From Halorutilales archaeon Cl-col2-1 (GTDB lineage Archaea > Halobacteriota > Halobacteria > Halobacteriales > Afararchaeaceae), in contig CP169074.1 of NCBI GenBank assembly GCA_041891055.1, forward strand, positions 1,088,001-1,152,000: a DNA stretch of 64,000 nt, given 5' to 3'. Each line of letters starts with the position of its first letter. The stretch's first letter is position 1. This document shows, in pieces, positions 36,001-42,000 of this stretch. The position numbers were made by a program.

Positions 36001-39000
36001 CGTGAGTGACGGAGAGGACGTCCTCATAGGCGCGATAATGGAGCACATAGAGGAGGCAGGAGTCCACTCAGGTGACTCGGCGTGTGTCATACCGCCACAG
36101 AACATAGGCGAGGACGTCCTCGACAAGGCGCGCGACTACGTCCGCAGGATAGCACGCGCTCTCGACGTCGAGGGTCTTCTCAACGTCCAGATGGCTGTAC
36201 AGGACGACGAGGTCTACGTATTAGAAGCCAACCCGAGGTCGTCACGTACTATCCCCTTCGTGAGCAAGTCGGTCGGAGTCCCGATCGCGAAGATCGCCGC
36301 CGGGGTCATGATGGGAGCCTCGATAGACGACTTCGACTACGAGGACGAGCCATACGGCGAACACGTCACTGTCAAGGAGGTCGACCTGCCGTTCGACCGC
36401 CTTCCGGGTGTCTCTCCGACACTCTCGCCCGAGATGAAGTCGACGGGAGAGGTCATGGGGGTCGACTACGACTTCGGACGTGCCTTCTACAAGGCTGAAC
36501 TCGCCGCGGGCAACGCACTCCCCGACACCGGGAAGATATTCATAAGCGTGAGGGACAAGGACAAGGACGAGATAGTACCTGTGGCGAGAAAGCTCGACGA
36601 CCTCGGCTTCGACTTAGTGGCTACCGAGGGAACACAGGCACATCTCAAGCAGAACGGAATAGAGGCGGAGTTCATAGAGAAGGTACACGAGGCATCTCCC
36701 AACGTCGTCGACCTCATGAAACGTGACGAGATCGACCTCATAATAAACACACCCGACGAGAAGACGGCGAGGGACGACGGAGCCGACATACGACGCGCCG
36801 CAGTCGACAGGGACGTCACCTATATCACGACAGTGAGAGCCGCCGACGCCGCAGCCGACGCCATAAAGGCAGCGAGGGACGAGGAGATGTCGGTCAAGTC
36901 GATAGAGGACTACATAAACGAGTCGGAGGACGAGTAGACGGCTAACTACCTTTCTGTTTCAGCTTCGTATTTTTCGTGTCTTCGTACCCAACTGGTTTGG
37001 CTGTGTCTTGATATATATCTGTGACGTATATAAGCCGATGCCAGCACCAGGTTCGAGACAGAGTTCTGAGCCGAGAAGGGATTCAAGGGGGGACACGAGG
37101 TAATGCGAGGGTCTGAGTCTGTTCTTCCGAGTAGGCTACGGGAGAGCTACACCGCGAAGCTAACCGCGGTTCTCTTCACAGCCGTAGTGACCACGGTGGT
37201 CTTCGGTGTAGTCCTCCTCAGACAGGTCGAAGAGGGAGTCTCAGACACTACTTCGGGTGTCGTGGGTCTGATACTCCTAAACGTCGTCAACCTGGGTCTC
37301 ATAGGATCGACAATAGGGAGTAACACGGCTATATCACTCGAAGTTCTCCAGAGGAAGTCGTCGAGAATGGGTCGGGGAGACCTCGACGTCGACCTCGAAA
37401 CCGACAGACAGGACGAGATGGGAGACCTGTATGACTCGTTCTCCAAGATGAGGGACTCGCTGAGACAGAAGATAGACGAGGCGGAGCGCGAAAGGGAGAG
37501 GGCAGAGAAACAGAAGAGGATAGCCGAGGAGAGACAGGAGGAAGCCGAGGAACTCAACAGACGTCTCGCGGAACAGGCTGAGAGGTACAAGGACGTCATG
37601 AGGGACGCCGCAGACGGAGACCTCACGAGACGTGTCGACGCCGAGACACGTAACGACGCGATGAGGGAGATAGGAGAGGCTTTCAACAGCATGATGGACG
37701 GCTTAGAGGAAACTGTGGCTAAAGTAAAGGGATTCTCGGACGAGGTCTCCGACTCGACACGTGAGGTCGAGAGAGGCGCGAACGAGATACGTGAGTCGAG
37801 CGAGCAGATAAACAGTTACATACGTGAGATATCACGCGACACCGACGAACAGGACGACAAGCTACAGAACATATCGACCGAGATGAGCGACCTGTCGGCG
37901 ACTATAGAGGAGGTCGCGTCGTCGGCTGACGAGCTAGCGGGGACTTCACAGAGGATGGCTGATCTGGGTCAGGAGGGAAGAGACGCAGCCGAGATAGCCA
38001 TAGACGAGATCAACCAGGTCGAGTCTGAGACCGAGAAGACGGTCGAGGAGATAGTCAAGCTCGACGAACAGATGAAGGAGATAGAGGAGATAGTCGATGT
38101 CATCACCGACATAGCTGAGGAGACCAATCTACTCGCTCTCAACGCGAGCATAGAGGCGGCGAGGGCGGGAGAGGAAGGAGACGGCTTCGCTGTCGTCGCC
38201 GATCAGATAAAGGAGCTCGCCGAGGAGACAAAGAAGTCGGCGTCCGAGATAGAAGAGGTCATATCCGACGTACAGGATCAGACCGAGAGCACAGTGGACG
38301 ACATACGTGAGACGAGCGACAGGATAACCAAGGGTGTCGAGACAGTCGAGGACACCGTCGAATCCCTCGAAGAGATAGTCGGATACGTCGAGGAGACCAA
38401 CTCGGGAGTCCAGGAGATCCGTGACGTGACCGAGAGCCAGGCTAACTCAACACAGGAGGTCGTGTCGGTCACCGACGAGGTCTCCGAGCTCAGCAGAAAC
38501 ACAGCCGACGAGGCGAAGAAAGTCACCGACGAAGCCGAGAGCCAGACCGAGATAGTCAAGTCAGTCTCGGAGAGAGCCGAGAGACTCGCCGATGGAGCCG
38601 ACGACCTCAACGAACTCCTTGAGGGCTTCGATGTCAAATCTAAGTCTGACGTCAACGGCAATGTAACGGCGCGAGGAGTAGAGAGGTCGGATTTAGCACA
38701 CGCAGACGGAAAGGGAGGTGAGAGGTAGATGGTTGAGATAACCGACACGACGACATGGTTCTGGATAGGCGCGGTAGGTATGTTCGCGGGAATGGTAGTC
38801 TTCGTAGCCTCAGGTGTCAGGAGCGACGACGAGACGAGGAAGTACTACGGTGTCATAGCCGCGGTCGCCTTCATAGCGTCCGCAGCCTACGCTGCGATGG
38901 CTCTCGGTATAGGCTCGCTCGAGTCCGACGGAGTGACCGTATACCTCCCGAGGTACGCAGACTGGCTGATAACGACACCCCTACTCATACTTGACCTGGG

Positions 39001-42000
39001 TCTCCTCGCGGGTGTCAATAAGAAGACGTACGCGGCTCTGATAGGCTCAGACGTCGCGATGATAGGATCGGGAGTCGCGGCGTCGCTCTCGACCTCCTGG
39101 GTCAAGTACGTCTACTTCGGCGTGGGATCGGTGGCTTACGTGGTTCTCCTCTACCTACTCATGAGAACCCTCTCGGACGCCGCGAGGGGCAGAGGAGTCG
39201 CGTCTCTGTTCCAGAAGCTAAGGAACCTGACAGTAGTCCTGTGGTCGGTCTATCCCGTAGTCTGGCTGGTCGGACCCTACGGAACGGGTCTCTTAGAGCC
39301 CGCTACCGAGACTATCATAATACTCTATCTCGACCTCATAACCAAGGTCGGGTTCGGTTTCATACTCGTCAACAGCCACGACGTCCTGTCGTCGATACGT
39401 ACCCCCTCGACGGCGGACGTAGCCGAGACGTGATCAGTCTCAGTTCCCTTCTACCTCAAAGATAACACCGAAGACGTGGTCGTTAGGACACGAGAGACGT
39501 CTTAGCTTTCCTCCTTGGCTTCGCCGTCCCCGGCTTTCCTCGTTCTCGTAGTCAGTCTCGAAGACCCCTTTTACCGTCGCGTCCCACGGGAGACCCATCT
39601 TGACATTGACACCGCATATGGGACACCGTATATCCCGAACAGGCATCGTTGGGAGACGATGGTAGACAAGTGCTTAAGCCTACTCCTTGTTGTACACCCC
39701 AACAGTTAGGCCTCGTTTTAATAGTGTGACGGAGCCTATTCTAAGTATGACGAGTTTTGGTCTCCGAAGACTACGGAGACGCGGACGGTCGAGTTCGTAC
39801 CTCACGAGGTCGAGGCTCGGTTTACTTTCACTGACGGTCGGCTTCGGTATCTTGGGTCTCGCGGGCATAGGAGTCTCACTGCGTCTCCAGTCTGCCGTCT
39901 ACCTGATAGGGATGGTGGCGATGAACCTCCCCCAGGGTGGCTACGAGAACTTACATAACCTCGACGGACGTGGCACGAGGTTCCAGATGGGATACATAGC
40001 CTCCTACGTACTCACCATAGCGGCTTTCACAGCCGTCTTCTTCTTCGACCCCGTCGTGGGACTGGGTCTCGGCGTCTTTGTCGCGATGGCTAAGGGAGGC
40101 TTCGGAGACCTCAGCGTCTTGGAGACCATCTACGGCGACCACATAAAGACAGATATCCAGAGATGGCTAGCTGCGGCGGTCAGAGGTGGTGTCGTGATGG
40201 TAGTTCCGATGGCTTTCCATCCCGAAGCTTTCTACGGTCTGAGCTCCGTGATGGTGAATATATTCGATCCCGGTGGTCTCACGAGACTCGGATACGGGAG
40301 CTTCGAGACCGCGAGCCGTGTCCTCGGGGCTGTTCTCTGTGCCATAACTGGGGTTTACCTGGTTCTGGGGTACATACGGTCAGACGCGACGGGGTCGTTC
40401 AGGTCTGACGCGGGCGAAATCTTCCTCCTAGTCGCCTACTTCGCAGTGACTCCCGTCGTGGTAGCCGTTGGTCTCTACTTCCCCCTGTGGTACTCGGCGA
40501 GACAGGTCGCCCGTATGAGGGCGGTCGACGACTCCGAGACGGAACGGGACGGCTTTGACGCCCCGGCTGTAGTAGTCTCACTCGTCGTGGCGAGCGTCGT
40601 GTTAGGTGGTCTCGTGTGGTCAGTCTCGCCACAGCCCCTCGGTGGTGCGAGAATCCTACCAGGACTCGTGGCTTTCTGGACGGTATTCGTGAGCATAATA
40701 GCACTTCCCCACGTAGTCATTGGAGGGCTTATAGACAGGTCGAGGGGGATATGGTACGTCCCATGACCAAAAACGACAGTCACCCGGAGAGAAATCGAGA
40801 AATAACCACGAAAGAAACAAGACTAGACAGGTCAAGATAAGATGACGGATCAAGGAAGGATACTCTACGCAGGCGGTGAGATAGACGGTATCAGCCCTGA
40901 GTCGGTAGACGAGAGTCTCGACCGGCTCGAGGTCGTACACGAATCCGACTTCGTCACGGCTCTCGAATCCGCCAGGGAAACCGACGTCAGAGGCGTGATC
41001 GCCTCCCACCGGACTAACGGCTTCAGAGGCGTCGACCTACTTGAGTCGATGCGTCAGGAGGGGCTGGGAATCCCCGTAGCCGTGGTAGTTCGGGAGGAGG
41101 AGGCAGGCGAAGTGGCACGCAGAGCAGTCGAAGCCGACGCCACGGCTTTGGTGCCAGCAGGCGATGACGACGCTCTCGAAGCCTTAGCTGACGCGATCGA
41201 GAGAAACATGAGCACCGAGGATGGACGTAGACGTGAAGAAGACAGACGTATGCCAATATCCGACCTGCCCTTCGAGGACGAGAGACGTCTCAAGGAACGT
41301 GTCCTTGACGAGGCACCCATAGGAATCACGGTCTCGAACGCCGACGACCCCGATAACCCCATAATCTACCTCAACAAGTCGTTCGAGAGTCTGACTGGGT
41401 ACTCGGCCGAGGAGGTAGTGGGTGCGAACCACAGGTTTCTACAGGGAAGCGAGACCGACACCGAGAAGGTCGAGGAGCTCGGAAGAGGTGTCTCAGAGGG
41501 GCGTGACACACGGGTTACACTGCGTAACTACACCCGGGACGGTGACCTCTTCTGGAACCAGGTAGACGTAAGCCCTATATCCGACTCAGAGAACGAGACG
41601 TCTTATTACGTGGGGTTCCAGATGGACGTCACCGAGCGCGAGAGATTCAGACACGAGCTTGAGGAGGAGCGCGAGGCTTTCGACCGTCTCATAGACCGGA
41701 TGAACAGTCTCATCAACGACATCACGAGATGTCTTGTACGTGCCGAGAGCCGCGAGGAGGTCGAGGAGTCAGTCGTCGAAAAGCTCGGCGAGGAGTACGA
41801 TCAGGCTTGGATCGGAAGGTACAGCCCCACGGACGGCGAGGTGACTGTAGACGAGACCTCGATACGAGACAGAGAGGAACGACAGAATAGAATCAGCGTC
41901 GGAGAGGAAGACTCCGAGCGAGTAGTGAGTGACGTAGTCGAGAGACACGAGACAAGTGTCGTCGAGGGCGACGAAGCCGAGTCCCTCCGTCGTCGTATAC

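Follow-up and report, generated by a model that had tools for sequence, protein, structure and literature searches.

A transducer-linked sensory-type opsin with aspartate at the proton-donor position in a Halorutilales archaeon

Results

Organization of the htr-sop locus

The window, i.e. the whole stretch of DNA analysed (64,000 nucleotides of contig CP169074.1 of Halorutilales archaeon Cl-col2-1, positions 1,088,001 to 1,152,000, forward strand), contains a microbial rhodopsin gene, sop, preceded by a transducer gene, htr. The features of the locus, numbered from the first base of the window, are as follows.

36938..37102, + strand: region upstream of htr, read directly from the sequence; putative promoter
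36986-36999, + strand: 14-base element 5′ of htr; two positions differ in the sister genome
~37010-37019 and ~37026-37034, + strand: TATA-like AT-rich stretches 5′ of htr, nearly the same in the sister genome
37103..38728, + strand: htr, ORF for a 541-aa transducer with two HAMP stretches and MCPsignal
38714-38721, + strand: Shine-Dalgarno-like GGAGGTGA within the htr 3′ end, 7 bases before the opsin ATG
38729..39433, + strand: sop, ORF for a 234-aa opsin (PF01036, 215.5 bits)
39687..40766, + strand: blh/brp-type beta-carotene 15,15′-dioxygenase, which makes retinal (PF15461, 201.4 bits)
40842..42872, + strand: bat-type regulator with PAS, GAF, BAT and HTH_10 domain matches
42916..43734, + strand: lycopene cyclase of the crtY type (PF18916, 33.3 bits)

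The initial annotation had placed the opsin gene directly after a two-TM transducer gene, and the sequence bears this out: the htr stop codon TAG occupies 38726-38728 and the opsin ATG follows immediately. Both GGAGGTGA and the abutting TAG-ATG junction are kept in the sister genome, suggesting that translation of the two genes may be coupled through them. In comparison with the sister genome, sop has a dN/dS of 0.149 and htr one of 0.123, and both genes are under purifying selection; the two opsins differ at 9 amino acids, none of them among the key residues described below. We conclude that htr-sop is a real operon. The dN/dS of blh was 0.252, with an uncertain start codon (TTG here, GTG in the sister).

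Several further statements of the initial annotation held when re-examined. The opsin is indeed the single rhodopsin of its genome (one PF01036 match in 2,064,627 bases, 99.47% complete), and the sister genome likewise has one match; a heliorhodopsin search of the genome returned no match, as did its control, which matched nowhere. Chemotaxis and archaellum genes are present (9 MCP, 3 archaellin and 3 CheW-domain genes). The near-equal scores against PDB entries were reproduced (deltarhodopsin 183.3 bits, NpSRII 183.0, the HwMR entry 9jws 169.9), and database comparison returned the same identities, 96% to the sister opsin and 54% to the next closest among the matches listed.

To place the locus among others, 80 loci from named genomes were surveyed, comprising 44 opsins with Tyr at the position of Y200 (Tyr-200) and 36 other opsins. 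An htr-like gene lies directly upstream in 44/44 Tyr-200 loci (43 scored, plus L045 under another start codon) and in 0/36 of the others. The adjoining genes show a different distribution between sensor and non-sensor loci: bat in 0/44 vs 11/36, blh in 5/44 vs 26/36 and crtY in 3/44 vs 27/36. The bat gene of the window is 32-36% identical over ~540 aa to bat beside pump-type opsins (L036, L044, L054, L055 and L072), and crtY is 37-46% identical to crtY genes adjoining pump-type opsins. The htr-sop operon thus adjoins a blh-bat-crtY group of the kind usual at pump loci, which is new here.

Sensor-type and pump-type residues of the opsin

The residue equivalences of the initial annotation were upheld by alignments to NpSRII. 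Key residues of the opsin are R75, D78, T82, D89, M111, Y175, E190, E194, Y200, D202, T205, K206 and L213. Among them K206, D78, D202 and R75 equal NpSRII K205 (the Schiff-base Lys), D75, D201 (the Asp counterions) and R72, and D89, Y175, E190, Y200 and T205 equal F86, Y174, T189, Y199 and T204. The alignment confirms the SRII-type Tyr (Y200) and the Thr before the Schiff-base Lys (T205), and the SRII signalling pair Thr204-Tyr174 is kept as T205/Y175; roles of Y199, T204 and Y174 in NpSRII are described in the available portions of PMC3274258 and PMC13739731. The B-C and D-E loops are short, as in sensors, and at positions discriminating 87 sensors from 48 pumps the opsin is sensor-like at 10/15.

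The helix-C triad of bacteriorhodopsin (BR), Asp85/Thr89/Asp96, corresponds to D78/T82/D89. The initial annotation called this a proton-pump triad; the residues are present as claimed, but the pumping implied by the name does not follow, since Haloquadratum middle rhodopsin combines DTD with the SRII-type Thr and, in the excerpts available from PMC12078690 and PMC8354847, is described as not pumping protons. The site of BR Leu223 is L213 (L in 47/48 pump rows, Ala in 83/87 sensors), and in an alignment of 244 rows the residue at the donor site covaries with that at position 213, Y/F occurring with A and D with L. By alignment, D89 is accompanied by pump-type L213 and by M111, which is new here. 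At the BR Thr46 site, T/S in 48/48 pump rows, the opsin has I43, which differs both from the Thr of pumps and from the Leu of sensors. The extracellular proton-release pair of BR, Glu194/Glu204, corresponds to Y184/E194, so that in the alignment with 48 pumps the equivalent of Glu194 (E in 44/48) is absent from the opsin.

Rarity of aspartate at the donor site

A census of the donor site was taken over the best 120 database matches and the query, in which 86 rows have Tyr at 200. Apart from query and sister, the Tyr-200 opsins among these matches have Tyr (52) or Phe (32) at the donor site and Asp in 0/84; Asp was likewise found in 0/44 other Tyr-200 opsins of named genomes. An Asp donor is therefore unique among the Tyr-200-type relatives examined. 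Query and sister aside, the best 120 include 35 Asp-donor rows, all with V/I/M at 200 and Ala at 205, so that all 35 fit the earlier statement that Asp elsewhere is confined to pump-type rows without Y200 and T205. The accompanying statement that every sensory-type relative has Tyr or Phe is true for 84/84 rows among the best 120 but fails in wider sets, where the donor site of Tyr-200 rows can also hold Val (P0123, P0134, L035), Thr (P0245) or Glu (P0161).

The transducer and its contact with the opsin

Htr matched HAMP in two stretches and MCPsignal (155 bits), and a hydropathy scan placed its TM helices at 20-38 and 53-71, with a periplasmic loop of ~10 residues. Its N-terminal 150 aa aligned with NpHtrII (2f95_B) at E 2.1e-32 (115.3 bits), giving the equivalences Q41 = E43, S51 = S62, N63 = N74 and G72 = G83. 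The NpSRII-HtrII contact Tyr199/Asn74 is kept as Y200/Htr N63. The Thr189-Glu43/Ser62 contact is kept only in part in the alignment: E190 and Htr Q41 differ, and S51 (Ser62) is retained. Replacement of Thr189, one of two hydrogen-bond contacts, by E190 counts against a phototaxis receptor, and in NpSRII the T189V/Y199F mutant bound transducer ~100-fold more weakly, according to the available text of PMC3274258. The Thr189 site is variable across the family: of the 87 sensors, 49 have T, 15 have Q and 12 have L.

Prediction of the opsin-Htr complex gave an ipSAE of 0.75, a mark reached by 58/80 solved complexes and 2/110 mismatched pairs; the best of 3 controls scored 0.00. At least 85% of contacts agreed between runs, the partner pLDDT was 74, and the predicted interface sets helices F/G against TM1/TM2. 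Because a like complex, NpSRII-HtrII, has already been solved, the prediction shows likeness rather than binding.

Phylogenetic placement

In maximum-likelihood trees the lineage branches as sister to the whole set of other Tyr-200 sensors, among them the SRI-type rows, and when 42 positions are dropped the opsin is placed within the SRII radiation (support 67). The AU test rejected neither the nested position (p 0.335) nor the pump side (p 0.203), so that D89 may be either ancestral or regained. In the Htr tree, Htr is sister to the NpHtrII type (support 81). Middle rhodopsin was represented in alignments and trees by the MR-like Haloquadratum protein L048 in place of the HwMR sequence; no htr gene accompanies L048, which branches with the pumps, and the query branches on the sensor side.

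Discussion

A probable SRII-kind phototaxis receptor

The reading we favour, with somewhat better than even confidence, is that the opsin is an SRII-kind phototaxis receptor complexed with its own Htr and cycling faster through D89. It is supported by the HAMP-HAMP-MCP transducer with NpHtrII-like TM helices and first HAMP domain, by the kept equivalents of Asn74 and Ser62 in Htr and of Y199, T204 and Y174 in the opsin, and by the short loops, the 10/15 sensor-like positions, the htr linkage with its conserved abutting junction, the low dN/dS, the Che and archaellum genes, the D89/L213 pairing and the predicted complex; the pump-like locus counts against it, as does I43 at the Thr46 site, which makes a donor role of D89 less certain.

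Gene order, domains, residues and their conservation and rarity are observed; each functional step that follows is inferred, as are the colour and the sign of the response. Light would isomerise retinal on K206, and the T205-Y175 pair would sense the isomerisation and set helix F in motion. To reach Htr TM2 the signal may then cross the helix F/G surface, where Y200 would face Htr N63 and E190 would lie close to Htr S51/Q41; it would go on through the two HAMP domains and the MCP tip to CheW/CheA/CheY and the archaellum. The opsin is probably blue-green in colour. Its cytoplasmic half would be unlike that of a classical SRII, D89/L213 matching BR Asp96/Leu223 in place of the sensor Tyr-or-Phe/Ala; the most likely role of D89 is to return a proton to the Schiff base from inside, which would shorten the M state and yield a faster-cycling sensor. 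Net proton transport would be small, and shut off in the opsin-Htr complex. The genes blh, crtY and bat may lie beside the operon because the opsin is the only rhodopsin.

According to the available parts of two reviews (PMC10519204, PMC7704677), haloarchaeal sensory rhodopsins have Tyr/Phe for the donor and their slow photocycle aids signalling. If a slow cycle helps, yet the Asp is under purifying selection, the Asp needs a reason, and the faster cycle proposed here is our guess at one. Engineered BR P200T/V210Y/A215T and middle rhodopsin A201T/M211Y both signal through HtrII (as summarised in the accessible text of PMC3274258 and PMC8354847), and NpSRII F86D is reported to speed M decay only about three-fold (PMC7704677, citing Iwamoto 2003); by analogy, a receptor could have an Asp donor and still signal.

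Alternative readings

It is possible, though we think it unlikely, that the opsin has a dual use, signalling when bound to Htr and, as free opsin or even in the complex, pumping protons outward via D78/D89 under Bat control like bop; one rhodopsin would in that case cover energy capture as well as phototaxis. That each of the two genomes has just this one rhodopsin, that the D/T/D triad comes with pump-type L213 and M111, and that the blh-bat-crtY linkage is pump-typical and rare at sensor loci all favour this, as does the proton transport of sensory rhodopsins lacking a transducer, reported in the available parts of PMC9117797 (citing Bogomolni 1994) and in the title of Sudo 2001, cited in PMC7704677. 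Against it, I43 and Y184 replace the Thr46 and Glu194 equivalents, T205 and Y200 are the states seen in sensors, middle rhodopsin reportedly pumps no protons although it has DTD, and F86D alone speeds M decay of NpSRII only ~three-fold (PMC7704677, citing Iwamoto 2003, in the text available). Blh also lies near 5/44 ordinary sensor loci, and with the two genes abutting, opsin and Htr would be expected in roughly equal amounts, leaving little opsin free.

We regard as doubtful a further proposal, that the lineage is a surviving intermediate from pump to sensor, both pump and phototaxis receptor, which acquired Htr coupling before the SRI/SRII split and kept Asp96/Leu223 and the bat-blh-crtY regulon. 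Were it true, transducer coupling would have come first and donor loss second, and the DTY form inferred as the ancestor of sensors in the available part of PMC9117797 would have been preceded by a DTD form already a sensor.

That the opsin is an ordinary slow SRII, whose D89 was left over and tolerated or arose by drift and plays no part in proton transfer, also strikes us as improbable. Its proponents could point to Val and Thr at the donor site of some Tyr-200 opsins, which make the site less than strictly aromatic, and to the missing Thr46 partner of D89; yet D89 is kept in two species at dS 0.13 and dN/dS 0.149, it is paired with the pump-type packing partner L213 where 83/87 sensors have Ala, and Leu at 213 recurs in an independent transducer-linked opsin with Glu at the donor site. 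A buried carboxylate, moreover, would be costly unless used. Finally, it is very improbable that the opsin is no phototaxis sensor but a pump or other ion transporter (cf. the proposal for middle rhodopsin) with the MCP gene a mere neighbour: DTD with Thr before Lys is the middle-rhodopsin signature in the available part of PMC12078690 and the AU test leaves the pump side standing (p 0.20), but the Y200/N63 contact pair is present, htr stop and sop start abut, Tyr-200 goes with an upstream htr in 44/44 loci vs 0/36, the loops are short and sensor-type, and MR-like L048, which lacks htr, lies on the pump side with the query on the sensor side.

Significance

To our knowledge, a pump-type donor together with transducer coupling has so far been known from engineered proteins only. 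The locus offers a naturally occurring system in which to study how sensors arose from pumps, and a selected example with which one can ask how fast a sensor can cycle and yet signal, whether the transducer closes a donor-containing cytoplasmic channel, and in which order the steps from pump to sensor were taken. Should the opsin both pump and signal, it would be a compact optogenetic scaffold. A second transducer-linked lineage, bearing Glu, suggests a small overlooked class.

Comparison with known systems

That second lineage is represented by the metagenomic opsin L095 (87% identical to P0161), new here, for which a literature search found no publication. It shares with the query Tyr 200, Leu 213 and a donor-site carboxylate, and its MCP stop overlaps the opsin start; unlike the query it has Glu as donor and Ala before Lys, and it is 37% identical to it. 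The tree nests L095 close to SRI-type rows, which makes its carboxylate look like a secondary gain.

The query departs from a BR-type pump (no transducer, Val/Ile 210, Ala 215) in having htr upstream, Y200 and T205; from a middle rhodopsin, whose DTD and Thr it shares, it departs in having Y200 and the htr gene. HwMR of Haloquadratum walsbyi (PDB 9JWS, 8XHW), described as between BR and SRII in the excerpts of PMC12078690 and PMC8354847, resembles the query in its DTD and SRII-type Thr. It differs in having no transducer, in A201 and M211 at the Thr189/Tyr199 sites (both of which must be mutated for it to signal), in its reported role as a Mg2+ transporter, in a score to the query below that of NpSRII (169.9 bits) and in having 11 more residues across the aligned region.

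Two engineered proteins come close. In BR P200T/V210Y/A215T (Sudo and Spudich 2006, as reviewed in the available text of PMC3274258), which signals through HtrII, Asp96, Tyr 210 and Thr 215 equal D89, Y200 and T205; the query differs in Glu rather than Thr at the BR-200 site, in its sensor-like sequence and loops, in having its own transducer and in lacking Thr46 and Glu194. NpSRII F86D (Iwamoto 2003, cited in the parts available of PMC7704677 and PMC3274258) shares the SRII scaffold and the Asp donor, but is a single laboratory substitution without Leu at 212, and its M decay is reportedly only three-fold faster.

A close natural system is NpSRII/HtrII of Natronomonas pharaonis (PDB 1H2S, 2F95 and other entries), which shares the htr-then-sop order, a short-loop two-TM transducer, the equivalents of Y199/N74, T204/Y174, S62 and G83, and an interface of helices F/G with TM1/TM2, predicted in the query pair; NpSRII aligns at 183 bits and 42% identity, with helices A-C free of gaps. 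The query departs from it in Asp for Phe86, Leu for Ala212, Met for Val108 and Glu for Thr189, in Gln for Glu43 and a periplasmic loop ~9 residues shorter in Htr, and in the bat, blh and crtY genes beside its operon.

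The htr-sop operon and the only rhodopsin of the genome

The initial annotation described a gene for a two-helix transducer abutting an opsin gene, and the ORFs, their domains, the junction and both predicted helices were all recovered:

37103-38728, + strand: htr, an ORF of 541 aa with two HAMP stretches and an MCP signalling domain
38729-39433, + strand: sop, an ORF of 234 aa matching the rhodopsin family PF01036 (215.5 bits)

A hydropathy scan of the htr product predicted membrane helices at residues 20-38 and 53-71, with about ten residues between them. The opsin ATG directly follows the htr stop codon TAG, with a GGAGGTGA stretch 7 bases upstream, and the same junction occurs in the sister species, whose DNA in this region is collinear and 93.5% identical. 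Some 12 bases before the TATA-like stretch that precedes htr lies a 14-base element (36986-36999) similar to the activator site of bop-regulon promoters; nine near-matches to it lie elsewhere in the genome. It was dropped as evidence for a Bat-type upstream activator, since 2 of its 14 bases differ in the sister and passages of PMC1447603, PMC1502140 and PMC2253796 give no consensus to set it against.

The genome (2,064,627 bases, 99.47% complete) contains a single PF01036 match, as does that of the sister, so that the claim of a sole rhodopsin stands. A heliorhodopsin search gave no match in the genome, which proves little because the control of that search also matched nowhere, and NCBIfam, which is without rhodopsin subfamily models, returned 0 families for 22 proteins. 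The reported chemotaxis and archaellum genes were found as well (9 MCP, 3 archaellin and 3 CheW-domain genes). One CheW-domain match outside the window (G000:C1:1395918-1396292 of the genome under study) lies in a 695-aa frame with one TGA inside the match, and this frame is probably cheA. Within the window, 27794-30569 holds genes for a RuBisCO large subunit (415 aa) and, after it, a nucleoside/AMP-phosphorylase-like protein (498 aa), a pair that fits the archaeal AMP-salvage pathway.

The lineage is represented by two genomes, the query and its sister. Comparing them yielded dN/dS values of 0.149 for sop (dN 0.0195, dS 0.131), 0.123 for htr, 0.057 for carB and 0.252 for blh, and none of the 9 amino-acid differences between the two opsins falls at a named site.

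Transducer coupling and residue equivalences

Among 80 opsin loci from named genomes, 43 of the 44 opsins with Tyr at query position 200 (Tyr-200 opsins) were scored as immediately preceded, on the same strand, by an htr-like gene, and the remaining one (L045) also has such a gene, masked by start-codon choice. No htr-like gene lies beside any of the 36 non-Tyr-200 opsins. Tyr-200 therefore marks transducer coupling reliably (44/44 versus 0/36). The htr genes upstream of Tyr-200 opsins (loci L015-L094) fall into two size classes: in the smaller (about 530-590 aa) a short loop joins the membrane helices, and the larger (about 755-810 aa) has some 250 residues forming a periplasmic domain. At many of these loci the stop codon of htr abuts or overlaps the start of the opsin gene.

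The phmmer scores reported against PDB entries were reproduced (deltarhodopsin 183.3 bits, the Natronomonas pharaonis receptor NpSRII 183.0, the Haloquadratum walsbyi middle rhodopsin HwMR 169.9). The alignment of the query with NpSRII is gapless across helices A-C, and that with the pump requires a gap of 4 residues in the B-C loop. Equivalences were rechecked in an alignment of 244 rows, NpSRII itself (P0060) among them. R75, D78, T82, D89 and M111 of the query correspond to R72, D75, T79, F86 and V108 of NpSRII; Y175, Y184, E190, E194 and Y200 correspond to Y174, P183, T189, D193 and Y199; and D202, T205, K206 and L213 correspond to D201, T204, K205 and A212. The first 150 residues of Htr match the transducer NpHtrII (E 2.1e-32), with N63, S51, G72 and Q41 at the positions of Asn74, Ser62, Gly83 and Glu43. 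The roles of Tyr199-Asn74, Thr189-Glu43/Ser62 and Thr204-Tyr174 were taken from portions of PMC3274258 and PMC13739731. NpSRII Thr189 is replaced by Glu in the opsin and NpHtrII Glu43 by Gln in Htr, which may be a compensating swap at the second receptor-transducer contact.

Modelled as a complex, the opsin and Htr(1-125) passed with an ipSAE of 0.75, the best of 3 controls reaching 0.00; that mark was reached by 58/80 solved complexes and 2/110 mismatched pairs. Contact agreement among runs was at least 85%, and the partner pLDDT was 74. The predicted interface sets opsin helices F/G against Htr TM1/TM2, and opsin residues 188-190 would adjoin Htr 40-41 and 50-52. Since the NpSRII-HtrII complex has already been solved, the model was read as a likeness only.

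A pump-type donor pair in a sensor-type opsin

A comparison of 87 sensors with 48 pumps yielded 15 discriminating positions, at which the query is sensor-like at 10, pump-like at 3 (Y72, M111, L213) and neither at 2. Across 244 rows the donor site (query D89, the position of bacteriorhodopsin Asp96) covaries with position 213, Tyr or Phe going with Ala and Asp with Leu; the query carries the pump pair D89/L213, which makes a stray substitution at D89 less likely. Pump partners are absent from it at two positions, namely 43, where it has Ile (T/S in 48/48 pumps, Leu in 86/87 sensors), and 184, where it has Tyr (Glu in 44/48 pumps).

A search of 5.8 billion proteins returned the sister opsin at 96% identity and all others at 54% or less. 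In the set made up of the query and the best 120 of its 623 matches, position 200 is Tyr in 86 rows; in the 84 of these besides query and sister, the residue at the donor site is Tyr (52) or Phe (32). Every one of the 35 rows in this set with donor-site Asp has V, I or M at position 200 and Ala at 205. The initial annotation had put Tyr or Phe at this site in every sensory-type relative examined, which is true of these 84 rows and fails elsewhere: the 44 Tyr-200 opsins from the named-genome loci have Y (29), F (14) and V (1), and Val, Thr or Glu also occurs in Tyr-200 opsins among the 150 best representatives at 50% identity, so that the rule is strong, not absolute. Parts of PMC10519204 and PMC9117797 give the accepted view that classical sensory rhodopsins have Tyr/Phe here, and no natural transducer-linked rhodopsin with the Asp/Thr/Asp helix-C triad (DTD) was found in the literature searched. 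Eight of the best 120 matches (P0042, P0062, P0068, P0074, P0082, P0087, P0095 and P0115) form a Tyr-200 clade with Gln for the Schiff-base counterion Asp and Gly/Ala for the next motif Thr; a Halorubellus example (L025:2160-4202) has a shorter htr-like gene (441 aa) directly upstream.

The weight of evidence favours the opsin as a phototaxis receptor that signals via its own transducer. The bacteriorhodopsin mutant P200T/V210Y/A215T signals through HtrII despite its donor-site Asp (PMC3274258), middle rhodopsin A201T/M211Y also signals through HtrII (PMC8354847), M decay in NpSRII F86D is accelerated only some three-fold (PMC7704677), and middle rhodopsin shows that DTD need not mean proton pumping (PMC12078690). 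By analogy with these proteins, a donor-site Asp is no bar to signalling, and because of them we read D89/L213 as a retained internal reprotonation route, which would shorten the signalling state, with net proton transport presumably blocked within the opsin-Htr complex.

The main rival is a dual role, in which the opsin would be both pump and sensor; the absence of any other rhodopsin match in the genome speaks for it, and so does the locus. On the same strand, sop is followed directly by blh, which encodes a beta-carotene dioxygenase, by a regulator gene of the bat type (PAS/GAF/HTH_10) and by a lycopene cyclase gene. At the 80 named loci, counting neighbours up to 3.5 kb from the opsin, crtY was found at 27/36 non-Tyr-200 and 3/44 Tyr-200 loci, blh at 26/36 and 5/44, and bat at 11/36 and 0/44; therefore the htr-sop locus is of the pump kind. 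This fits pump ancestry or bop-like regulation, and may be a simple consequence of the opsin being the only retinal protein of the cell.

Origin of the donor pair

In every full-alignment maximum-likelihood opsin tree, query and sister together branch as sister to all the other Tyr-200 sensors, on a stem of 0.4-0.5 substitutions per site, and careful, quick and mixture-model trees concur on this basal place. Support for the clade of other sensors was UFBoot 87 / SH-aLRT 87 in the careful tree of 82 rows, SH-aLRT 91 with 95 rows including an MR-like Haloquadratum protein (which fell on the pump side), 96 with 149 rows (48 in the clade, SRI-type included) and 89 with 80 rows under the LG+C20 mixture model. 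The basal placement is not robust. AU tests rejected neither a query constrained to the pump side (delta lnL 19.6, p 0.203) nor one nested with 22 SRII-type rows (delta lnL 15.7, p 0.335); without the 42 positions that include the pump-like sites, it fell inside the SRII radiation (support 67); and in the transducer tree its Htr is sister to the NpHtrII-type clade (support 81). On these results the Asp/Leu pair may be a holdover from a pump ancestor or may have been acquired anew by an early lineage of SRII type. Recombination with a pump gene is unlikely, as the pump-like signal consists of about five scattered sites (Y72, A77, D89, M111, L213) with no tract, and the genome has no remaining pump gene.

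A second sensor-type opsin with a donor-site carboxylate, the representative P0161, has an Asp/Thr/Glu triad, Tyr at 200 and, as in the query, Leu at 213. In the 149-row tree it is nested near rows taken as SRI-type because P0196 matches the SRI-HtrI entry 9wxr at 235.8 bits; a donor-site carboxylate can therefore arise inside the sensor clade. A transducer-linked opsin 87% identical to P0161, on a metagenome contig (L095:3-1285), has the same triad, with its Glu aligned gaplessly to D89, Tyr at 200, Ala before the Lys and Leu at 213, and its start is overlapped by 4 bases by the stop of an MCP-domain ORF.

In the alignments HwMR was represented by the MR-like opsin of Haloquadratum walsbyi J07HQW2 (L048:3477-4217). 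It has DTD and Thr before the Lys, no htr nearby, and crtY and blh as neighbours on the opposite strand, but it differs from HwMR in having Thr and Val at the published positions A201 and M211.
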